Part shown: positions 28,397 through 41,141 of the stretch, one piece after another
Position numbering within the stretch: the stretch's first letter is position 1
How the letters are laid out: every line of letters begins with the position of its first letter
Origin: Microcoleus sp.
GTDB taxonomy: Bacteria > Cyanobacteriota > Cyanobacteriia > Cyanobacteriales > Microcoleaceae
NCBI GenBank assembly: GCA_042408215.1
Contig: JAYFMW010000030.1
Coordinates: 160,001 to 224,000, forward strand
Length of the DNA stretch: 64,000 nt
Direction: 5' to 3'
Made by a program: the position numbers and the translations under genes
The notes under the pieces: generated by a model
Databases searched by the model: none
The model's input: the letters and a program-made list of their open reading frames with translations, nothing else
Told to the model about the DNA's origin: nothing

Positions 28397-29941
28397 AAGA
28401 AATACCCTGAAAACCCTGTGACTTTAGTCCAGGGATGAAAGGGCGTGGCAGGATTTATCCTGCCTGTTCGTAAGTTTCAATATAACATAATGTTTAACCG
28501 TCCCCGGACAAATTCTTCTAGCAATTGAGACCAAGGTAAAGATTTGTTTAGGATTAATTAACTTGTTAATTCACGATATATACTAAACCTAGTGTCACAA
28601 TAGCCAGTAAGTTAAATGTACGCAGTACAAAAAGATGTTTGGCATTTAAAAGGACTCGACAAAACCATTGTCGAACAACTCTTGAGATGGTCAAATAATC
28701 TGTTTAATGTCGGAACTTACGAAAGTCGGCAACAATACTTTAAAAACCAAAGCGTAGTTAAATATCCAGATTTATATAAAATAGCCAAGACCAACGAAAA
28801 TTACGGGTTGCTATACTCTCAAGTTGCCCAACAATCTCTTAAATCTGTCGCAGAATCTTTTACTTCTTTCCGAGCCTTAGAGAAGTTGGCAAACAAAGGA
28901 GCAATTAATCAAAAACCGAGACTACCAAGGTACAGAACCAAAGGGGGAATGTACCCCGTTTCCTATCCCGGTCAAGCCTTAAAGGTAATTGGAAATAAAA
29001 TCAGATTACCCCTGGGGAAAAAAGGAAAAGAATACTTTGGGAAAGATGCGATTTGGGTGCCGCTACCTGAACGTATCAAGAATTGCCAGATCAAAGAACT
29101 CAGGTTAATCCCTAGAAATGGTGCGGTATGGGTCGAATATGTCCACGAATCCCTGACTGAACAAGCCCCTAGTTGCAGCTTGGAAGTGACAGGGGTTCTG
29201 GGCATCGATCACGGCATCAATAACTGGTTAACTTGTGTCTCTAGCGGTAAACCTTTCATCATTGATGGACGTAGACTCAAGTCTTGGAACCAATGGTTTA
29301 ACAAAGAAAAAGCGAGAGTTCAATCAGAACACGCAATACATAAATTACCCAAAGGTTTCTCGTCAAAAAGATTGCAGCAGTTGTCGGAAATTCGCACTAG
29401 AAGGATGAGAGATGCTGTCAACAAAGCAGTTAGAAGTATTATAGATTATTGCGAAGATCACCAAATCAATGTCTTAGTCTTTGGCTGGAACAAGGCACAG
29501 AAGCAAGAGGTTAATATGGGGGTCGTGACTAATCAGAATTTTGTCCAAATACCCACTGCTAAAGTCAAAGATAGACTCCAACAAGAATGCGACTTAAGGG
29601 GATGGCGATTTGTAGAACAAGATGAATCTTACACCTCAAAATCAAGTTTTTTAGACCGAGACATTTTGCCAGTAAAAGTCTGTGAAAAACCTGACAATTG
29701 GCAACCATCGGGTAAAAGAATCAAAAGAGGATTGTACTGTTCTAGCGCTGGGTTGTTAATCAATGCAGATGTTAACGGTGCAGCTAATATCATTAGAAAG
29801 TCAAAAGTAGCCATAGACTCAATTCTTGAGCGAGTGGGTAGGGGGTTTCTGACTAACCCTTTGAGAATTAAGCTTTGGGCGGATTCATCCCCCAAAGTTT
29901 GTCCTTAAGAATCCCCGTGTCTTTAGACCGGGGAGTGTCAA
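28397..29941 (+). mobile_element. IS200/IS605-family (IS1341-type, tnpB-only) element
   Basis: Left hairpin CCCTGTGACTTTAGTCCAGGG, right end GAAT-CCCCGTGTCTTTAGACCGGGG-AGTGTCAA; preceded by TTAT. Confidence 0.8.
28616..29908 (+). CDS. tnpB: RNA-guided endonuclease TnpB
   Basis: YSQVAQQ, GIDHG, QNFVQIP, ESYTSKSSFLD and NADVNGAANI motifs. Confidence 0.92.
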   Translation: MYAVQKDVWHLKGLDKTIVEQLLRWSNNLFNVGTYESRQQYFKNQSVVKYPDLYKIAKTNENYGLLYSQVAQQSLKSVAESFTSFRALEKLANKGAINQKPRLPRYRTKGGMYPVSYPGQALKVIGNKIRLPLGKKGKEYFGKDAIWVPLPERIKNCQIKELRLIPRNGAVWVEYVHESLTEQAPSCSLEVTGVLGIDHGINNWLTCVSSGKPFIIDGRRLKSWNQWFNKEKARVQSEHAIHKLPKGFSSKRLQQLSEIRTRRMRDAVNKAVRSIIDYCEDHQINVLVFGWNKAQKQEVNMGVVTNQNFVQIPTAKVKDRLQQECDLRGWRFVEQDESYTSKSSFLDRDILPVKVCEKPDNWQPSGKRIKRGLYCSSAGLLINADVNGAANIIRKSKVAIDSILERVGRGFLTNPLRIKLWADSSPKVCP

Positions 29942-30256
29942 AATTAATCCTAGCTTTCACCCCTACATTCTCCCACGCTGTCTAGATGCTAGTAAAGTGC
30001 GATCGACCTTGAACCAATTTAATTGAGATAGTCCTGGACGCAAAAACCCGGTTTCTGACAAAAATCTTCGCTTTTTTGGAGAAATGTTGACACAGGGTTT
30101 CCGCGAGAGCTCAACCACCGGGGGTTTTTGGCCCCCGTGCGTAAGTCCTGTGAGATTAACGAAGAAACGGAGTCAATGCGGGGAATCGGAATTTTCGCGG
30201 ATTCCCCACTACGCCAGATCCGCCCAAAATTTACAGTGTTGGACGGGTGGCAGAAT

Positions 30257-31634
30257 TTAATCTTGACAACAATTCTTGACATATTCCCGAAAAACAGAAG
30301 ACAATTTAAACAAGATTTTATCCTCTTTTATCTTCCTTACTAAATACCTTTGTTGTAAAGATTGTAAACCATTAATTAAATCCATTGATGATAAATCTAA
30401 ACTCTGTCTTAAATATTCTCTGGATACAGGCAGATCGAACTTACTTAATTCTAAAACAAGTTGCTGTTCTCTAGGTGATATTCTGTTAAATAACTGGTGA
30501 AAATTATATTGCATATCCTTGGTAATAATCAAGCTCTTATCGGCTAAGAACTCAGCAACATCCCCATCAAAAATCTTTTTAATTGAAATAGCAATACTTT
30601 TTAAATAAACTGGATTACCCTCATATAAATTAATTAACTTTAACCAACTATCCTCATCTTTCAATCCTGTACCTTTCAGAATTGCCACATCATCTAAACC
30701 TGACAACTCTAAACATTTGATCGGATATAATTCCTCATCTAAACACTCCATTTCCGCACATTGCTCTTGACTAATTAAAATCACATTACTTTGATGCTCA
30801 GTTCCTGTAATCATGGTAAAAAAGTTTTGGTAATCTTGATATTCAGATTTATATTGTCCAGCAAATTGAGCCGGTAGCAAAGATATTATGAACATCATCA
30901 AGAATAATCAAACATTTTTTGTCTCTCAAAACATCTAATAATTGTTTTAACTTATCATCTATAGTTTCTTTAGCTTCTTGTTTACAAGCATTCAATAAAT
31001 CATTAACCAATAACTCTAAAGGTTTAGGAAATTTTAGGCTTCTCCAGATAATTACTTCAAATTCTTGTAGATTGAGATCGACAAACCTTTTCACTAGAGT
31101 AGTTTTACCAATTCCACTCAATCCCAATACTGAGGTTAAACGAGTATTTTGATTTAAGATCCAATTAGAAATAGTTTTAAGTTGAGATTCTCTTGCGTAA
31201 AAATTGATGATTTGAGGAGCTATGGTTAAATCGTGATAATGTGATGTAGATTGAGTATTTATATCACTTTGCTTGAGCTTATTTATTGGGCTGAGTTGAT
31301 TTGATATTTGTGTAGGACAAAAATTATTATTACTGCCATTTATATGGTAAATATTATTGGAATTGTCAGATGATTCAATATATACTCTTTCTAAGCTAGA
31401 ACGAAAATTAGTTTTTTTTATATCCTCACCCAATATTTCAGATAAAAGTTGCCATAATTCAGCACCTACATCACCTACATGATTTTTAGTGACATAGCAC
31501 TTCTGGGCGATATCATCATAGGTTTGTCTTTCCCAAGTCCCCTCAACTACAGCCCTTTGAACATCATCTAGGTGCTTTCCAGTTCGTTCAACCACTAGGC
31601 GATCGACAAATTGTAACAGTTGGTTTACATTCAT
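30257..31634 (-). pseudogene. N-terminal HTH plus NB-ARC/STAND ATPase regulator with a single +1 frameshift near 30870 (possibly a sequencing error)
   Basis: N-terminal TGKHLDDVQ..TY..IA HTH, Walker A GLSGIGKTT, Walker B LIILDD, YEGNP. Removing one base gives ...IFATGQFAGQYKSEY. Confidence 0.75.
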
Positions 31635-31865
31635 AAAAACTATACAGGGCAAAGGTTTCATCCATTATAACTTAACCGGAATCCTATTTTTTCCGATCTT
31701 TTCCGATTTTTTGCTTAATATTGTGTAACAAAACTCCCGTTTAAATCCGAGTTTTTCCGATCGCACTCCCATATTTAATTTTGCTATGCTCTTAAAACAA
31801 ACGAGCACAGGCTTAAAAAGTCGTGCTTTTTCCGTTGTTGATGATTTTTTAGGAGCATTACTAAA

Positions 31866-32075
31866 ATGACACAAGCAAAAGAAAGATTACTCACTGATAC
31901 TCACTCACAAAATGATTGTATTGTTCTTGACCTTGAAGAATTTGACTTAAGTGACTTAGATGCACTCAAAAATACAGCACTTGGTAACGTTTTGGAAAAA
32001 AATTTTTCAAAATCCAATGGCTTCATCTGCATCATACCAGACATACTAGCCATTCTTCTCATCGGTGCAGTTTGA
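31866..32075 (+). CDS. FxsA-like RiPP (triceptide) precursor peptide; C-terminus apparently scrambled by single-base insertions
   Basis: AGGAG RBS at ~31851. Leader VLDLEEFDLSDLDALKNTALGNVLEK resembles FxsA leaders. HTRHTSHSSH is encoded in the +2 frame at 32033-32062. Lies directly before the radical SAM gene. Confidence 0.75.
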   Translation: MTQAKERLLTDTHSQNDCIVLDLEEFDLSDLDALKNTALGNVLEKNFSKSNGFICIIPDILAILLIGAV

Positions 32076-32122
32076 TCAAAGTGCTCTGGGGGTAGTCAAT
32101 AACTGGCTATGTACAGAATACT

Positions 32123-32168
32123 AATTAAATGGCTACTAATTACCTCAAGCAATAGTAGCCATTTAATT
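32123..32168 (+). terminator. 16-bp perfect stem-loop between precursor and maturase genes
   Basis: AATTAAATGGCTACTA (32123-32138) / TAGTAGCCATTTAATT (32153-32168). Confidence 0.65.
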
Positions 32169-32216
32169 CTGGCATACATAATTTAAGTTTTGAACATATC
32201 ATAGATTTATGGCTGA

Positions 32217-33374
32217 GTGTCCACACCCTTACATTCGCTGGTTTGTAAAGTAGTATCCCGTTGCAACCTTAACTGTGATTATTGCTATATGTATCAGCAT
32301 AGCGATCAAAGTTGGCAACAGCAACCTTTGAAAATGTCTGAAGCAACTATTACACAATTAGGTAAGAGAATTGATGAACATACCACCAAACACCAAGTAT
32401 CAGAATTTTCTGTAATCATGCACGGTGGAGAACCTCTCTTAGCAGGGATTAGACTATCTCAAAAATTTTCAAGAGATTATTACAGAAAGATGTGCCTAAT
32501 GTTAAACTAGAGATTTGGCATGCAAACTAATGGTGTGTTGTTAAACGATGAAATCTTAGATTTCTGTGTTTCTAATAATACAACAATAGGTCTAAGTATG
32601 GATGGCGATCGAGAAGCTAACGATTTGCATCGCTTAGATCATCAAGGTAAATCTGCATTTTCCAGTTTGGAAAAGACTCTTCAATTATTAAGTAGCGATC
32701 GAGGACGGAAAATATGGGCAGGTTTTTTATGTGTGATCGATCTACATAACGATCCTGAAGCTGTATATTCTTATTTGTCACAATATAATCCTCCTTCGAT
32801 TGATTTTTTGTTACCTTTAAATCACCATGACTTAAGACCTCTTGGTAAAGAAAAATCTCTTGATGTAACTCCTTATGCAGACTGGCTACTTAAGATTTTT
32901 GATATTTGGTATCATCAAAAACCTCAAACAATCAAAATTAGGAAATTCAAGGAAATTATTTTACTAATGCTAGGATTGCAAGGAAATTCAGAAGAATGGG
33001 GTTTAAACCCTGTTGATTTTGCCGTTATTGAAACCAACGGTGATATTGAAGCCGTTGATTCTTTGAAAGTTACTTATCCCGAAGCTACCAAGTTAGGAAT
33101 GGATATATTTACCCACAGTTTTGATGAGATTTTTGACTCCCCAAAGGTTATTCAACGTCAAGAAAAGTGGCAATATTTGAGCGAAACTTGTCAAGAATGT
33201 AACTTAGTTAAAGTTTGTGGTGGTGGTTATCTTCCCCATAGATATTCTAGCGAAAATTACTTTCATAATCCATCAGTGTATTGTTCCGATCTCAAAAAAC
33301 TGATTACTACAATTCGCCGCCAAGTAATTGAAGATATGCAAACAATCAAGAAGAAAAAACTTCCTGCTGTTTAG
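32217..33374 (+). CDS. fxsB: FxsB-family radical SAM/SPASM cyclophane-forming peptide maturase; broken by ~3 single-base insertions at ~32445-32515
   Basis: KVVSRCNLNCDYCY (CX3CX2C), HGGEPLLAG, MQTNG, SMDG, DFLLP, TPYADWL, ETNGDIEAVDSLK, CQECNLVKVCGGG..HRY..NPSVYCSDL. The two ORF halves are in the same frame. Confidence 0.85.
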
Positions 33375-33408
33375 TCAAACTTCGTCTTATTAAATTAGGG
33401 TTAGTGCA

Positions 33409-35253
33409 ATGAAGATCGAACTGGATATTAATACCGTCAAAAACTTAGTTTCTCCTACGGGGGCTTCCGATCCATTAGTTAAAGTAATTTACTTAGCAGA
33501 ATATCATAGAACTTTGCTAAGGTTAAGTAATCTCTCTCAAAAACTGCAATCAGAATCACCTAAGTTAATTGATGGTTTAACCAACTTTTCTCAATCTTTT
33601 GAGTTGGTAAAATCTTTTTCTAAAAATGCCCAAAGAAAGATTTTACGCCATCCATCTTTTAGCGTTTGGTTAGATACAGCTTGGCAATTAGTTAACCGAA
33701 AAGCTCATATTCTGTTTCCAGAAATGCACATTAAGTTTCATCTGGAATCTTTCCCAAAGTTTCTTTTAGCAATGGCAAAATATGACAATATAGAAAATTT
33801 AGAGTGTTTTTTATATACCGATCATGCTGGAATTATTGCCATACCCGGAACCGGAATTTATTTACAGCATCCTCAACATCTTGCCTTTCAAAGATTGCGT
33901 TTTGTTACCACAACTAACGCTGGTTTTAATATTTATACAGATGGAAATCAAAATTTAGAGATGATTCAAAATGAAATACCTCATCTCAATAACGGCATTG
34001 AATTAAATGCTTTTGATAGCGATTTACGTTTAGGTGGTCGCTACGATTTGAATTTTGAGGAATTAACACCAACTTCCACTATTAAATGGTTATCTAGTTT
34101 AGAGGAAGCTTGGTTTTGGATAGAGAGTTGTTCAACTTTATTAGCAAGTGAAATTTTCATGGGAGTACAATCTTTAGTTCCAGTACATTCTCATGCTATA
34201 GATGTTCATAGAAGTCAGACATTTCGAGAAATACCCGGACTTTTGATTTTATCTTGGATGTCAGATACCTCAGTAATAGTAGAAGCTTTAGTCCATGAAT
34301 ATCATCATCATAAACTTAATGCTTTATTAAATTTAGAGCCAATCATTGTAGAAGGTAGTCCAGAAGAAATTTATTATTCTCCTTGGCGTGACGATCCCCG
34401 ACCTCTCAGTGGTATTTTGCAGGGAATTTATGTCTTTCAAGCTGTTTTAGAATTGTGGCATAAAATTCTGAAAACAGATATACCTGTTTTACAAGAAAAG
34501 CGTTTGCAACAAAAAGTATATTCTGCTAAGAAGCAACTGCTAACTGCACTTAAAGTTTTAACAACTAATGCAGGATTTTCTTTGATTGGTCAAGCATTGA
34601 TTGAAGCAATAGAAGAAAATATCGATCGAGTTGAACCTGAAATTTCTCAAATAGAACAACAACAAATTGACCTGAGATTAAAAGAACATCAGCAGAAATG
34701 GGAAGCGGCAAATCCTAATTTAGTCGGCACAAAAATCTTGCCAATTAAAGTATCTGTTGATTTGGCAAAAAATGACAACAATACAATATTGAATCAATCA
34801 TGTCAATGGCTAGGAATTACACCAAATATTGATTTACGTCCCTTAACTTATCTGAGACAACCATTCGATCCAATTCTTGAGACTTTAGTAGCTATTTACC
34901 ACGATCGAGGCTTAAAAGAATTAGAAGACATATTAAAAGGAACTCAGTTGGGAGATTCAATTTTATTAGATTTAATATGTGGACATACAGCTTATCTTAA
35001 TCAAGACTATCAGAAAGCAGCAGAATTTTATCAAAGTTGTATTGAGCAATATCCTAATGCTCCTTATTTTTGGCAATGTTTTATGTTTGCATTGAGACAT
35101 TTAAACCTGTTAGAAGATTACGAATTAATCTTGCTTAACATAGATAAAATTGTTGCTAATAGTTTAGAAATCAAAAAAATAATCAGGCAAAACTCAAACC
35201 CTGAAAATAAAGTTCAAATGATGGTTAAATTAGTTAAAACATTAGTTAATTAA
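33409..35253 (+). CDS. aKG-HExxH-type peptide-modifying protein with C-terminal TPR-like repeat
   Basis: EALVHEYHHHKL and YYSPWRDDPRPLSGILQG; TPR-like YQKAAEFYQSCIEQYPN. Confidence 0.85.
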   Translation: MKIELDINTVKNLVSPTGASDPLVKVIYLAEYHRTLLRLSNLSQKLQSESPKLIDGLTNFSQSFELVKSFSKNAQRKILRHPSFSVWLDTAWQLVNRKAHILFPEMHIKFHLESFPKFLLAMAKYDNIENLECFLYTDHAGIIAIPGTGIYLQHPQHLAFQRLRFVTTTNAGFNIYTDGNQNLEMIQNEIPHLNNGIELNAFDSDLRLGGRYDLNFEELTPTSTIKWLSSLEEAWFWIESCSTLLASEIFMGVQSLVPVHSHAIDVHRSQTFREIPGLLILSWMSDTSVIVEALVHEYHHHKLNALLNLEPIIVEGSPEEIYYSPWRDDPRPLSGILQGIYVFQAVLELWHKILKTDIPVLQEKRLQQKVYSAKKQLLTALKVLTTNAGFSLIGQALIEAIEENIDRVEPEISQIEQQQIDLRLKEHQQKWEAANPNLVGTKILPIKVSVDLAKNDNNTILNQSCQWLGITPNIDLRPLTYLRQPFDPILETLVAIYHDRGLKELEDILKGTQLGDSILLDLICGHTAYLNQDYQKAAEFYQSCIEQYPNAPYFWQCFMFALRHLNLLEDYELILLNIDKIVANSLEIKKIIRQNSNPENKVQMMVKLVKTLVN

Positions 35254-35260
35254 AACTTTT

Positions 35261-36232
35261 ATGAATACAGCAAGTTTGAGCAAACACTTAGTAAATAGTC
35301 CTTTTAGCAAATACTTTGAGATATTTCCTGATGGGGGACAATTACCTTCTTTTATTGCTACTGTCAAAGGGTTAAAATCGGCAACAGATTTATGGGTGCA
35401 AAAGCCCAAATGGAAATCTTTTTGTGAATTAGCTCAATATTTTGGCTTGTATTATTATGTAGATGCTTATTTTTATCGAGACATGGGAAAATTAAACAGT
35501 TTACCTCAAGAGTTATTTACTACAACTAAAGCTGTTTTTAGTAAAGAGTTTTCTGAGGAAGCTCATGTTTTTATTGCTAAGTCACAAGATGCTTTAACAA
35601 ATGCAATTGCTTCAGGATGGTATCCTTTAGTTGTCGGTCAAAGAGTAATTGAAAAACATTTACCAGACCATTATACTTTTGGAAAAGCACTAGGTTATCC
35701 TCAATGTTGTCTTGATTTTTTTCAAAAGCGAAATCATTGGAATTTTTATAATAATTACTATGAAACTTATCGCAATACGATTAACAAACCTACATATTTA
35801 TCAAATGGATTGTTACGTCATACTCCATTTTCACTAATTCCCCACATACCTTGTTCTTTTGATTGTCAAGCATCTATCCAATATGCTCAAAAAAATCGCC
35901 TTCTAATTAATGAGGAGAGCCAAGAATATTTAGAAGAAATAGAACATCATTTGCAAACACCAATTTTATGTCTGTCAGAACTTAAGATTTATCGTTTTGA
36001 AGGTAAAATTGTTGCTGAAAATATAGTCAACTATCAATCTGTAGAGGGAATATATCCTACATCACAAAATGATTGGCTATATCAAATACTTGTTAAAGGT
36101 GATACTTGTATTATTGAGGGGAATATTATTAGAGTCTACCGAGACAATTCTCAGATCAGTGCTTATTTTGCTAGAGGTGATAAACATGAAGTAGAGATTC
36201 CATTTTTGATGGATTTTTCCCAAGAGACTTAA
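35261..36232 (+). CDS. Cys-rich protein of unknown function (DUF483-like)
   Basis: GKALGYPQCC and PHIPCSFDC motifs; 7 nt after the HExxH gene. Confidence 0.55.
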   Translation: MNTASLSKHLVNSPFSKYFEIFPDGGQLPSFIATVKGLKSATDLWVQKPKWKSFCELAQYFGLYYYVDAYFYRDMGKLNSLPQELFTTTKAVFSKEFSEEAHVFIAKSQDALTNAIASGWYPLVVGQRVIEKHLPDHYTFGKALGYPQCCLDFFQKRNHWNFYNNYYETYRNTINKPTYLSNGLLRHTPFSLIPHIPCSFDCQASIQYAQKNRLLINEESQEYLEEIEHHLQTPILCLSELKIYRFEGKIVAENIVNYQSVEGIYPTSQNDWLYQILVKGDTCIIEGNIIRVYRDNSQISAYFARGDKHEVEIPFLMDFSQET

Positions 36233-36318
36233 TTGACAAAATAGGCATTCTTAAAAACATTTTAGTGAGGAGCATAGAAGATGTATACTTTAGTTTTAAT
36301 TAGACGAGGATTAATCTA

Positions 36319-37119
36319 ATGAATCTTGTAGAAAGAATTATTAACAATATTCAAGAAAAAGACTTACAATATATTCTTGATTTAGAAAAAGAGATTTTGA
36401 ATTCTAAATTAACTTTAGATCGAAATTTGTTAATAGATGTGGAGGATCAAAAAACCGCCCAACGATATTTCTATCTTTATACACTACCTATGTTAGAAGG
36501 ACTAGGATTATTAGAGCAACAGGAAAATGCTATTTTTTGGGGGACTGTGCAATTATGTTTAGATTTACATCTCAGATATGTGGATTACATCATAGATGAT
36601 GATAAAATAGACATAAGCAGATTATTAATTACGCAAAAATCTTATGATTATTTATTCCGATCGCAAATGCTACTAAATCAAAAAGGCTATTTGTGGGGTT
36701 CCGATCAAATGGCTATTTATACCCAATATTTTGACTACGAGAAGGAGGCAAATACCGAGCAATTTCATGATTTTGGTAGCCTATGGAGACGAGTATCTCC
36801 TCTATTCATTGTTTCTGGAAGTTACTTAAAATTATCTGGTAAAATAGTTGATTTTGATTTTTATTACAAACGATATATAAGTTCTTGGCTGCTCAAAGCA
36901 GATTGCTCGGATATTATTAAGGATATTAATAAACAAAAAACCCCGATTACCAACTTAGTATATAATTACGATGCTCAAATTGATAAAAATGTCATGTTAA
37001 TGGCCAACACAGTTAACTCTATTGATGTCAAACTCGATCGAGGTTTAACTCAAATAAAAAACCACATATCTAACAAACTTCCAATATGGGCAATAATTAT
37101 TGAAAGTTTGTTGTCTTAA
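36319..37119 (+). CDS. Hypothetical helical protein with isoprenoid-synthase-like Asp-rich motifs
   Basis: DYIIDDD and ADCSDIIKD motifs; GAGGA RBS. Confidence 0.5.
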   Translation: MNLVERIINNIQEKDLQYILDLEKEILNSKLTLDRNLLIDVEDQKTAQRYFYLYTLPMLEGLGLLEQQENAIFWGTVQLCLDLHLRYVDYIIDDDKIDISRLLITQKSYDYLFRSQMLLNQKGYLWGSDQMAIYTQYFDYEKEANTEQFHDFGSLWRRVSPLFIVSGSYLKLSGKIVDFDFYYKRYISSWLLKADCSDIIKDINKQKTPITNLVYNYDAQIDKNVMLMANTVNSIDVKLDRGLTQIKNHISNKLPIWAIIIESLLS

Positions 37120-37150: not shown

Positions 37151-37318
37151 TAATACCAATTTAATAGGTCGTTGCATATATTTCGATCCCCCTAAATCCC
37201 CCTTAATAAGGGAGTAGGGTGTGAGTAGGGGTTGACTTTGACCACCCTCTTGTCCCCCCCTTATTAAGGGGGGTTAGGGGGGATCAGATTCTATGCAGCC
37301 TCATAAAAAATTGGTATA
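37151..37318. repeat. MITE-like element with ATACCAATT/AATTGGTAT ends
   Basis: A related inverted copy lies at 56834-57002. Confidence 0.75.
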
Positions 37319-37830
37319 AGGGGGCATGGAAACCGACAAGCAAGGCGCGTCAATGCTTCGGCAGTCCAAAAGTCATATCAAATCCGTTGGCATCGGAATT
37401 ATTCATCTCTCAGGACTTACGCATTGTAACTGTGTGGCAAGGGTTTGAGATTCTTCGGTTCCCTCAGAATGACATAATTAGGTTATTAGTGCCTCCAGGA
37501 CTATCTCTCTCTTCTCTTCCTCTGCGGTCTCTGCGGTCTCTGCAGAGTTAAATCATTCCGAAACAACCGTAAACGAGATCGCTCAGACTTGTTTCATCAT
37601 GTCACCACAGGCGATACTGTCCAAGTTTTTCTCTTCAAGGTGAAGAAAACAAAGCATAATAGATCAAACTTACTGAGAGTGGAATCGTTAAACTGCACAC
37701 CACACTTCGGAGAAAAGCCGTGATGTTAGCAGAAAATAAGAGATTAACGGAGAAAAACCCCAGCAGGTCGGTGAAATTAAATTTCGATCGCCTGGGCGAA
37801 ACTCGGATCAAAGATAAATTCGGTTTATTT

Positions 37831-39786: not shown

Positions 39787-41141
39787 TTGACACTCCTCGG
39801 CCTGAAGGCACTCTTGATTCTTGGTTCAGTCAGTCGGCTTGCCCGTTGATGTTACCACCAACGAGTAGAGGTCGTTCTGTCCCCAAGCGTTAATTTCGGT
39901 GTGCCCCACCGTATTTAGATTGATTCCTGTTTGTTTTAATCCTTTTGCTAGAATATTCAGAGCTGCATTGTGGTCACGGTCTAATACCGCCCCACATCCG
40001 CAAATATGGGTTCTAGTTGATAGCGTTTTCTTAACTAGATTCCCACAACTTGAACAATCTTGGGAAGTGTACTGAGGAGCAACAGCAACTACTGTTTTAC
40101 CGTACACTTTCCCCAAGTATTGCAACCATTGAGCAAACTGCGACCAAGCTGCATCACTAATTGATTTAGCAAGCTTATGGTTTTTCACCATATTCCGCAC
40201 CTGAAGGTTTTCGTAGGCTACGAAATCGTTAGATTTCACTACGCACAACGCCATCTTAATGGCGTTGTCTTTGCGTTGCCTACTGACTTTTAGGTGTTTC
40301 CTTCCTAACTTATTGATTGCTTTTTTGCGATTACTAGAACCTTTCTTTTTCCGAGAAACTCGTTTCTGTAACCGCTTTAAAGCTTTTTCACTTTTACGGA
40401 GATGTCGAGGATTAGAAACTGTTTCTCCGGTGCTATCAGTGTAGAAATGGTTTAAACCCACATCCAACCCTACGGCTTTGCCAGTAGGAATTGTTTCCTC
40501 TGTCCGTTCCACGTTGATACAAAACTGAGCGTAGTAGCCATCGGCACGACGAACTATCCTGATTCGCTTAATTTCACCAGGTGCATAGAAGTGCAAATCT
40601 CGACTACCAAGTAGCCTAAATGTTCCAGCGGCAAAATCATCCGTGAAAGTTAAACATCTTTTGTCGGCAGAAAGCTTCCAACCTGAAGTCTTATATTCTA
40701 CAGAACGGGTGTGTTTCTTAAACTGCGGGTAGCCCTTTTTTCCTGGCTTCTTAGTTTTACAATTTGAGAAAAAACGTTGGATAGCAAAAATGGCGCGTTC
40801 AGCAGAAGCTTGACGTGCCATCGAGTTAAGTTTTCCTGCCCATTCAAACTATGAGGCCATGATGGCGCATTGTTTGTATAGATCAACTAACTTAACTACT
40901 TGATTGTCGATCCAATATCTAAGAGTTTTGTTTCGGACAAATTGCGCTGTGCGGATCATTTCGTCGATAATCCGATATTGCTGCGATTTGCCTTTTAATT
41001 TAAACTCTAGTACAATCATGCTATTATTCTATCGTTTTTGCAGAGCATTGTATTCGCAAAGTGCATATATTTAAGAATTGTTTACACTTTATAGAAATTA
41101 AAGCCGTCCTAGAAGGACGGGGCTTTAGACCCAAATTTTTG
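39787..41141 (-). mobile_element. IS200/IS605-family tnpB-only element
   Basis: Minus strand: TTAC | CAAAAATTTGGGTCT-AAAG-CCCCGTCCTTCTAGGACGG at the left end; ...GAGTGTCAA at the right end. Confidence 0.85.
39826..41019 (-). pseudogene. tnpB: TnpB with an in-frame TAG at 40849-40851
   Basis: MIVLEFKLKGK...CAIMAS*FEWAGKLNSMARQASAER; GLDVG, AYENL, TSQDCSSCG, CGCG and DRDHNAALNI motifs. Confidence 0.85.

Follow-up and report, generated by a model that had tools for sequence, protein, structure and literature searches.

The block at positions 30257–37119 of a 64,000-nucleotide stretch of Microcoleus sp. DNA (positions 160,001 to 224,000 of contig JAYFMW010000030.1, assembly GCA_042408215.1; the whole stretch is hereafter called the window) most likely carries a mobile cassette for a triceptide-type peptide that is made on the ribosome and modified after translation (RiPP). 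A divergent NB-ARC gene stands before five co-oriented genes, which encode a His-triplet precursor peptide, an FxsB-family radical S-adenosylmethionine (SAM) cyclophane synthase, an aKG-HExxH β-hydroxylase, a DUF483-family protein and, from the last gene, a protein of the class I isoprenoid synthase fold. We propose that the peptide would be cyclised at its His residues, hydroxylated, prenylated and optionally tailored by the DUF483 protein, and we give this pathway as a whole a probability of about 0.6. The families to which the genes belong, their folds and invariant or conserved positions, and the way the genes are linked and fused were computed; all of the chemistry is what we infer from them. 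Statements drawn from the literature rest on the accessible part of each cited source, and individual loci are cited by number (L029 and the like).

Composition of the island

The block has a GC content of 32.5%, compared with 45.1% for the 7.36-Mb genome, and none of 1058 genome tiles of equal length (6.9 kb) is as low. It contains no perfect HIP1 site (4.75 expected), which is also the case for 30 of the 1058 tiles, and within the window no HIP1 site is found between 27941 and 37853. An earlier reading, made from the letters without database searches (the sequence-only reading), had described an AT-rich, HIP1-poor block holding a divergent regulator and five co-oriented genes; the composition is borne out by these values, and the gene order by the list of open reading frames (ORFs). 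The profile searches that it had called for recovered NB-ARC, FxsB (as two pieces), aKG-HExxH and DUF483, the last ORF remaining without a match.

The precursor, the radical SAM maturase and the HExxH enzyme

Because several genes of the window are broken in this copy, intact protein sequences were taken from relatives. The precursor gene (31866–32095, forward strand) is frameshifted, and its pieces show an acidic leader, a His-triplet core and a Trp-Gly-stop end (32087–32095). Four His codons lie three codons apart in the core (32033–32062), forming H-x-x units that are the predicted cyclophane motifs. Frameshifts account for the in-frame 69-residue ORF at 31866 and for the two other ways of reading the precursor in one frame, all of which were set aside as artefacts. 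The intact homologues are 71–81 residues long; their leader is acidic and their core variable. His57, Ser59, Ser62 and the terminal Trp (codon 32087–32089 in the window) are invariant among 13 aligned precursors; 7 of 20 precursors end in Trp-Gly. All 14 cores compared (L017–L019, L029, L043–L051, L053) carry three to five His/Tyr residues at period 3 and no Cys. An adjacent precursor with aromatic-x-x motifs, as is found in triceptide (3-CyFE) pathways, is therefore present, and the His-crosslinked peptide of the sequence-only reading gains support, in that the intact precursors are His-triplet peptides on which crosslinks can be predicted.

The radical SAM gene (32209–33374, forward strand), which is also frameshifted, scores 427 bits against the FxsB profile TIGR04269 (cut-off 370) when it is read through one TAG, and the intact homologue of L044 scores 423.5 bits, which places the enzyme among the FxsB/XyeB/GrrM-type maturases. 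The CxxxCxxC motif and the SPASM cysteines are present, and the best solved relative is the structure of ChlB (9gm3, E 1.4e-86). The score against the YhhB equivalog NF041707 is 392.6 bits, below its cut-off of 445. The FxSxx-COOH precursor profile TIGR04268 gave 13.3 bits for the broken window ORF (cut-off 28) and no match for the intact precursors of L044 and L051. The intact HExxH gene (33409–35253, forward strand) scores 109.9 bits against TIGR04267 (cut-off 40) and matches the structure of ChlH (8s5f, E 1.4e-11); its HExxH motif is intact at residues 296–300, and its C-terminal region is TPR-like, with a TPR profile score below the cut-off.

The triceptide systems ChlA/ChlBH and those of HaaB, YhhB, HtkB and ScaB (PMC11499958, PMC11002830, PMC12636437) share with the cassette the radical SAM and HExxH families and tandem aromatic-x-x motifs, the aromatic residue being His here. 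Different from these systems, the cassette encodes the radical SAM and HExxH enzymes in separate genes, adds a TPR-like tail and two further genes, lacks an FxSxx-COOH precursor, mostly has Ser as the third residue of the motif, and has a maturase that falls below the YhhB cut-off. HaaB, YhhB and HtkB link carbon 2 of His to the β-carbon of residue 3 (PMC11499958, PMC11002830), and ChlH hydroxylates His and Asp solely on the pre-cyclised peptide, while some other HExxH enzymes cleave the peptide backbone (PMC12636437). By analogy, His cyclophanes are very probably formed on the precursor, and β-hydroxylation by the HExxH enzyme is likely.

Conservation and mobility of the five-gene cassette

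Searching with the last gene found 11 genome loci, titled Microcoleus, Trichodesmium and Oscillatoriales. The five genes are intact and in order in seven of them (Microcoleus and Trichodesmium). In two others a single deletion has removed the end of the HExxH gene and most of DUF483, in one a histidine phosphatase stands in place of DUF483, and in one the contig begins inside the last gene. Outside this group, the distant locus L029 (52% GC) has the same order of precursor, FxsB (440.7 bits), HExxH, DUF483 and last gene (E 1.7e-26), followed by two more DUF483 paralogues and a methyltransferase, and L020 agrees with this arrangement, starting at its radical SAM gene. The conservation of the neighbourhood, which the sequence-only reading wished to see checked, is thus evident in seven of the 11 loci and at L029. 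That reading would have been refuted had the last two genes never accompanied fxsB/HExxH elsewhere; co-occurrence, together with the HExxH fusions of each described below, ties both to the FxsB/HExxH pathway and supports its view of them as extra tailoring genes. A RelA/SpoT-domain gene (L029:8789-9865) closes the five-gene cluster of L029.

Among 79 genomes of the genus, the last gene occurs in 12, DUF483 in 10 (two of them remnants) and the precursor in 11; each of these three is single-copy, and where several are present all lie on one contig. When 401 genomes were drawn evenly from the cyanobacteria, the last gene was found in two and DUF483 in three, with the window's genome counted. The two accessory proteins of Microcystis aeruginosa NIES-3807 have adjacent accession numbers. 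The cassette adjoins at least three different chromosomal neighbours, which we take to be thiE, thrB and rplJ/rplL, and no integrase was found inside it.

Reciprocal scars link the copies with and without the phosphatase. Of a histidine-phosphatase gene that is intact at the same place in L050, only the initial 25 bases survive in the window (36281–36305, forward strand), the rest being deleted, and L050 keeps a degenerate DUF483 start before its phosphatase; therefore, a six-gene ancestral cassette can be deduced for the genus. Histidine-phosphatase genes recur inside or close to these cassettes, at L050:8407-8925 within the genus and at two distant DUF483/FxsB loci, L037 and L041. A relic at L006 (G006:C4) has a deletion corresponding to window 31044–35500, which fuses the regulator to the middle of DUF483; the last gene is still intact there, but the precursor and the maturases are gone.

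The DUF483 protein

The product of the intact DUF483 gene (35261–36232, forward strand) matches PF04467 with 31.7 bits (cut-off 25), and 34 of the 36 aligned members match at E 0.1. Cys149, Cys150, Cys198 and Cys202 are invariant in the 36 rows and His195 is kept in 30, which suggests a metal site; a Cys4-His site is probable from this conservation. The search of the ESM Atlas returned DUF483 clusters. A DUF483 fragment without context lies on one Streptomyces plasmid.

A scripted count over 27 DUF483 metagenome loci, several of them on short contigs, found a radical SAM gene in 17 and an HExxH gene in 15. Some loci have FxsB-type partners, whereas others combine HxsB/HxsC-type partners with HxsA3-like precursors; the 12 precursors found in these loci by eye or by pattern all carry His motifs, and both long DUF483 homologues found are HExxH–DUF483 fusions. 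From viral contigs, 80 of 83 DUF483 loci were kept, and 75 have a motif-bearing ORF. A radical SAM motif lies near 70 of these 75, and a methyltransferase-like motif, sought with a crude pattern, occurs in the same ORF in 48. Scanning of eight viral DUF483 proteins gave methyltransferase matches in six (several below cut-off) and a glycosyltransferase match in one. Fusions of DUF483 with radical SAM domains are also noted, per InterPro, in a study of Thermus phages (bioRxiv 10.1101/2024.08.14.607894).

Several other arrangements were seen. In many phages (viral contigs L082–L161) DUF483 adjoins a radical SAM gene and His-rich proteins, and it is frequently joined to a class I methyltransferase. 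A second cassette type at L035 and L037–L041 has two FxsB/YhhB-like radical SAM genes, two to three HExxH genes and two DUF483 paralogues, with glycosyltransferase-61 and methyltransferase genes in the vicinity; at L038 and L039 the precursor is tandem-duplicated and carries H-x-x and Y-x-S motifs. L021, L022, L024 and L028 combine DUF483 with HxsA3-like precursors and HxsC-like, in some cases HxsB, radical SAM genes, and L021 also has an A24 peptidase.

The predicted model (pLDDT 88) matches 2guk (PG1857) at Z 7.2–7.8. Residues 8–162 align with residues 60–220 of the NleE chain (4r29) with Z 5.0 and a root-mean-square deviation (rmsd) of 3.9 over 122 residues; this match ranks second of 48,161 chains, the next having Z 3.6 or lower. 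The SAM ligands of NleE are Arg107, Glu191 and Tyr212 (PMC4239114). Lys/Arg39 of DUF483 shares a local pattern with Arg107 and is kept in 35 of 36 rows, and Phe/Tyr154, aromatic in 31 of 36, falls on Tyr212 if the numbering offset of 58 seen where the structure alignment ends is applied. In 40 phage clusters that stood outside the choice of motifs, Lys/Arg at 39 and an aromatic residue at 154 are both kept in 40 of 40. Shuffling equalled the joint score of the two blocks on NleE in 4 of 1000 cases, and real decoys did so in 2 of 722; the blocks had been chosen after the fact, with the NleE motifs known.

A number of observations weigh against this relation and against the proposed part of DUF483 in the pathway. 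The NleE match lies below that of 2guk and inside the chance-fold range. With a phage-only profile, the best joint score of NleE is equalled by 18 of 1282 decoys and NleE ranks 16 of 1283 by HMM; only the first block still falls on Arg107, the second favouring an off-register window. No counterpart of NleE Glu191 could be placed. Many DUF483 proteins are fusions with a class I methyltransferase that is a separate domain. DUF483 is lost in three relatives within the genus in which the rest persists, and it has neither a radical SAM nor an HExxH gene within several kb of flank at L031–L034 (4 of 27 loci). A profile-profile comparison of DUF483 with NleE gave 5% over an off-register stretch; the same comparison of the last gene with its true fold relative IspB gave 0.6%, so this test is uninformative with single sequences. 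Foldseek returned nothing at E 0.001 for the model in the PDB or a viral library, the C-terminal half being barely covered. DUF483 also differs from NleE in its own Cys4-His site, in an extra C-terminal domain and in having no significant profile match; and NleE is a cysteine methyltransferase, while the cognate precursor cores have no Cys (0 of 14 loci). The N-terminal domain of the DUF483 model resembles PG1857 and, weakly, NleE, with a basic and an aromatic residue that would fit the Arg107 and Tyr212 positions of NleE. Taken as modelled, homology of DUF483 with NleE is slightly more probable than not, and its assignment as a SAM-dependent transferase is tentative, at just short of even odds; the sequence-only reading had listed the protein as a tailoring enzyme without giving it a function.

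A rather unlikely but arguable alternative is that DUF483 is a non-catalytic, zinc-stabilised adaptor which presents His-triplet peptides to partner enzymes. Its fusions with HExxH domains, class I methyltransferases, a glycosyltransferase and radical SAM domains would suit such a role, as would the two or three paralogues in several loci and a best fold match (2guk) of unknown function. Opposed to it are the basic and aromatic residues kept at the NleE SAM-ligand positions in every phage cluster, and the dispensability of DUF483 in copies whose other enzymes are unbroken. In the making of diphthamide and betaine lipids an aminocarboxypropyl group is transferred and methylation then follows, and the frequent fusion with a second methyltransferase would by analogy fit either an adaptor or a transferase of this aminocarboxypropyl type.

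The last gene encodes an isoprenoid-synthase-fold protein

The last gene (36319–37119, forward strand) is intact, and its product is a probable peptide prenyltransferase. A profile search of 1.84 billion representatives found 48 family proteins (representatives at 50% identity). The window ORF has no Pfam or NCBIfam match, and 16 of the 48 proteins scanned against Pfam matched no real family. In the ESM Atlas its clusters are unnamed, with polyprenyl synthase on 21% of the members of the nearest named cluster. No relatives were found in the plasmids or viral contigs searched, and PDB sequence searches with alignments of both accessory proteins gave chance matches only.

The model (pLDDT 90) is all-helical. 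All 37 proteins among the Foldseek matches listed are prenyl synthases or prenyltransferases, and the best VIA matches are MoeN5 and solanesyl (trans-prenyl) synthase, with Z 17.3 and rmsd 3.6–3.8 over 236–255 aligned residues. Asp89, Asp93, Asp195 and Asp202 are invariant in 53 rows, with Arg158, Ser160, Asp198 and Thr208 nearly so. The all-helical fold with facing Asp-rich motifs places the protein in the class I isoprenoid synthase superfamily. Chain-elongating trans-prenyl diphosphate synthases have the DDxxD motif twice and an Arg pair after the first. In the last gene product the second Asp is replaced (Tyr90, Ala194) and no Arg is conserved at 94–103; IspB shows the Arg pair, so its lack here counts against chain elongation. 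In 3 of the 48 representatives the protein is fused to an N-terminal HExxH domain that scores above the cut-off.

The precursors point in the same direction. Trp is the last or second-last residue in all 11 precursors from loci with the last gene (L029, L043–L051, L053) and in none of the seven precursors with His that come from DUF483 loci where this gene is absent (L021, L022, L024, L026, L028, L038, L039, among which L026 and L039 end soon after DUF483); in two of these seven, Trp is third from the end. Four further Trp-ending precursors lie on contigs that end before the position of the last gene. A cognate peptide with Trp at or near its C-terminus is also characteristic of ComQ, PalQ and StheQ, which together with the ChrPC P-domain share with the last gene product the all-helical fold and two Asp motifs (PMC10853753, PMC13290415, bioRxiv 10.64898/2026.08.29.745113). 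PalQ prenylates a C-terminal Trp and has its Asp motifs at D89/D93 and D200/D204 (PMC10853753), compared with D89/D93 and D195/D198/D202 here, and according to a 2026 review Trp is the acceptor for every trans-IDS-like peptide prenyltransferase that has been characterised (PMC13290415).

Other features speak against this comparison. Foldseek gave no match of the last gene product at E 0.001, and 10 of the 11 Trp-ending precursors that accompany it are close kin. In ComQ types an Asn stands at the start of the pseudo-SARM. PalQ and StheQ carry a Gln three residues ahead of the second motif (PalQ Q197, PMC10853753; StheQ Q212, bioRxiv 10.64898/2026.08.29.745113), and StheQ has N215 near it (bioRxiv 10.64898/2026.08.29.745113). 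In a register set by motif spacing and not by superposition, these correspond to Leu191, found in 50 of 53 rows, and to position 194, which is Ala, His, Gly or Ser with Ala commonest; in an alternative register the position is taken by Asp195. Moreover, the Trp-Gly ends of 7 of the 20 precursors sit poorly with PalQ, which loses activity on Ala-extended peptides (PMC10853753). In view of the absent Gln/Asn and the Trp-Gly ends, the last gene product would act like ComQ/PalQ but is no member of that class, from which it also differs in having no family profile match, in its link to cyclophanes and in some HExxH fusions. The acceptor and position of prenylation may differ accordingly. On the modelled fold, which supports the perhaps prenylated peptide of the sequence-only reading, the last gene likely prenylates the peptide. 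That reading had left the acceptor unnamed; the invariant C-terminal Trp is the best candidate, and the conservation pattern tips us modestly towards it.

Two alternatives, both of which we consider unlikely, concern this step. In the first, another site would be prenylated (a His ring nitrogen, a new β-hydroxyl or the C-terminal carboxylate), or Trp at a position other than C3. MoeN5, a joint-best structural match, is not known to be a Trp prenyltransferase; the indole-recognition residues of ComQ/PalQ are absent, and the family fuses with a hydroxylase. A terminal Trp that tracks the last gene in 11 of 11 loci compared with 0 of 7 argues the other way, as does the use of Trp by all the known peptide-acting members of the fold (PMC13290415). 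In the second, the last gene would encode a prenyl-diphosphate or terpene synthase whose product is a free isoprenoid, made maybe with the ancestral histidine phosphatase, and the peptide would stay untouched. Most fold matches are indeed chain-elongating synthases, four Asp are invariant across the two motifs, and a phosphatase gene lies directly upstream of the last gene in L050, with its scar in the window. An Arg-Tyr pair near the C-terminus is a cyclase-type motif; the window protein lacks it, just as it lacks the conserved Arg pair after the first motif. The HExxH fusion in three proteins, the lack of a second prenyltransferase in the cassette to take the product, and the absence of the phosphatase from most copies likewise count against a free isoprenoid and leave peptide prenylation as the preferred reading.

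Proposed pathway and product

In the proposed pathway, a strong first cistron would yield the precursor. The FxsB-type enzyme would then join carbon 2 of the His ring to the β-carbon two residues on in each H-x-x unit, giving two to four small cyclophanes by analogy with HaaB, YhhB and HtkB, and the HExxH enzyme would β-hydroxylate the cyclised core, as ChlH does. The last gene product, with a Mg-bound prenyl diphosphate, would alkylate the peptide, likeliest at the C-terminal Trp, to produce a lipopeptide. DUF483, as a metal-binding transferase of the NleE fold, might optionally tailor the His motifs with a methyl or aminocarboxypropyl group. Removal of the leader and export would be provided by genes elsewhere: no protease or transporter ORF was found among the island ORFs or by Pfam/NCBIfam-type profiles, in agreement with the sequence-only reading. 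With a lipid tail on a core that is rigid, hydroxylated and rich in His, the product would most likely be a peptide that associates with membranes and serves in metal binding or signalling; of the proposed steps, this role is the weakest.

Interrupted genes in this copy

Three of the six genes are interrupted in the window. The regulator is broken near 30870, and the breaks in the precursor and the radical SAM gene lie within 32003–32512; the sequence-only reading gave no hint of this beyond mentioning a corrected precursor. Relative to five related genomes, single extra bases occur near 30870 and at about ten places in 32003–32512, two of them intergenic. Among the matches listed in the run comparison at this patch, contigs of runs X1 and X2 are without 11 of the window's single bases and have one added, run X4 agrees with them at 10 of the 11 single-base sites, and run X7 has no cover there. 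In the alignment with L018, 32007–32510 shows eight single-base gains and one loss, compared with three gains and six losses in control alignments elsewhere in the window (~14.6 kb of summed ranges). The three downstream genes are intact. Given the dense patch of single-base gains, local consensus error fits better than decay, and the breaks are probably assembly errors.

That this copy is instead a decaying pseudo-cluster without a product appears improbable. Half of its genes are broken, and real decay does occur in relatives, with deletions of window 34828–36092 in two genomes and of 31044–35500 in one. Against this stand the crowding into 0.5 kb of lesions that are nearly all single-base gains, intergenic sites included, the 8:1 ratio of gains to losses in the patch against 3:6 in the controls, the close copies free of lesions in three independent runs, and the intact downstream genes.

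The regulator, intergenic repeats and island edges

The divergent gene (30257–31661, reverse strand), split near 30870 by one extra base, encodes an NB-ARC (STAND) protein that is a probable regulator, judged from sequence; it is one ORF of 455–470 residues in relatives and holds the same position in 9 of the 11 genome loci. The sequence-only reading had called it an HTH-NB-ARC regulator. The NB-ARC part stands (E 1.3e-9), but the N-terminal HTH lacks profile support, with a best profile E of 0.027 in the window and no HTH profile match at 1e-3 in the intact relative either. Between regulator and precursor, three imperfect 16-base direct repeats (31680–31765) form a possible operator. A perfect 16-bp inverted repeat (32123–32168, forward strand), found by a repeat scan between the precursor and radical SAM genes, is possibly an RNA stem-loop that favours the precursor transcript. 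A promoter scan performed no better than chance, no RNA holder appeared among the matches listed, and PHROGs gave one weak match, to a family of unknown function.

On the left, an IS200/IS605-type TnpB gene (28616–29908) separates the island from a thiamine-phosphate-synthase-like gene. In L018 the flanks adjoin each other and window 28399–29941 is absent, so TnpB is an insertion separate from the island. At the right edge (37153–37317) there is a MITE-like imperfect inverted repeat with 60-base arms and many copies across the genus. A 22-base inverted repeat (91%; 30138–30159 and 37402–37423) flanks the island and may be a chance pair of dispersed repeats. An ORF pair at 39826–41019, presumably transposase-like, looks frameshift-split.

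Comparison with other systems

The HXS system HxsABCD (PMC13128918; TIGR03977/TIGR03978) shares H-x-S repeats and radical SAM enzymes with the cassette, and DUF483 occurs in HxsB/HxsC loci; the cassette differs in its maturases, its short precursor and its prenyltransferase-like gene. In E. coli a modified HxS protein keeps phage DNA from entering the cell (PMC13128918), and an anti-phage effector role with the NB-ARC sensor as a switch is for this reason conceivable, helped by the H-x-S repeats, by an island that is mobile and unevenly distributed (at several chromosomal sites, in 12 of 79 genomes) and by DUF483 in HXS loci, but it is very unlikely, since the maturase is FxsB-type (HxsB scores reach 28 bits at best, with a cut-off of 370), neither HxsC nor HxsD appears among the matches listed, the precursor of 71–74 residues has no peptidoglycan-binding domain that could be found, and PADLOC gave generic viperin matches and one weak NTPase match.

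Minviopeptin, an ADP-ribosylated triceptide, likewise recruits extra tailoring enzymes, including a non-heme iron oxygenase (PMC12912966); its accessory families differ from those here, and its maturase is PasB-like. In the Thermus phages Cumys and phiMa, DUF483 adjoins a radical SAM gene in an 'rSAM module', with methyltransferase/radical SAM fusions, for which DNA modification is proposed and, in the accessible text, no peptide substrate (bioRxiv 10.1101/2024.08.14.607894); here the context is that of a peptide precursor. This is the one whole-word work on DUF483 in the open-access literature searched, where no function for the family was found. Nor was a prenylated triceptide found in the open-access literature searched. 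The accessible sections of one review that pairs triceptide and prenyltransferase hold the two terms separately (PMC11002830), and Microcoleus is unnamed among the open-access matches listed on RiPP, radical SAM and cyclophane. The 'possibly undescribed' peptide of the sequence-only reading therefore holds within the open-access literature searched only; cluster tables of subscription papers may list the architecture.

Significance

Triceptides, His cyclophanes and HExxH hydroxylases are already known. What is new is the stable pairing of these known triceptide steps with two uncharacterised enzyme families. In the fullest form of the proposal, which we hold to be fairly unlikely, the product would be a poly-His cyclophane, hydroxylated and prenylated, and thus the first lipidated triceptide, made by a new family of isoprenoid-synthase-fold prenyltransferases, and DUF483 would be a widespread metal-containing SAM transferase, the relative in cells and phages of an NleE fold that has until now been an orphan, modifying His-triplet peptides and proteins.

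The function of DUF483 is testable, because Microcoleus anatoxicus PTRS2, Microcoleus sp. LEGE 07076 and Microcystis aeruginosa NIES-3807 are strains in which it is accompanied by a short cognate substrate. Natural variants with DUF483, without it, or with a phosphatase instead provide ready-made controls. The family of the last gene would be a new catalyst of peptide lipidation. The cassette's hosts are common river-mat and bloom cyanobacteria.

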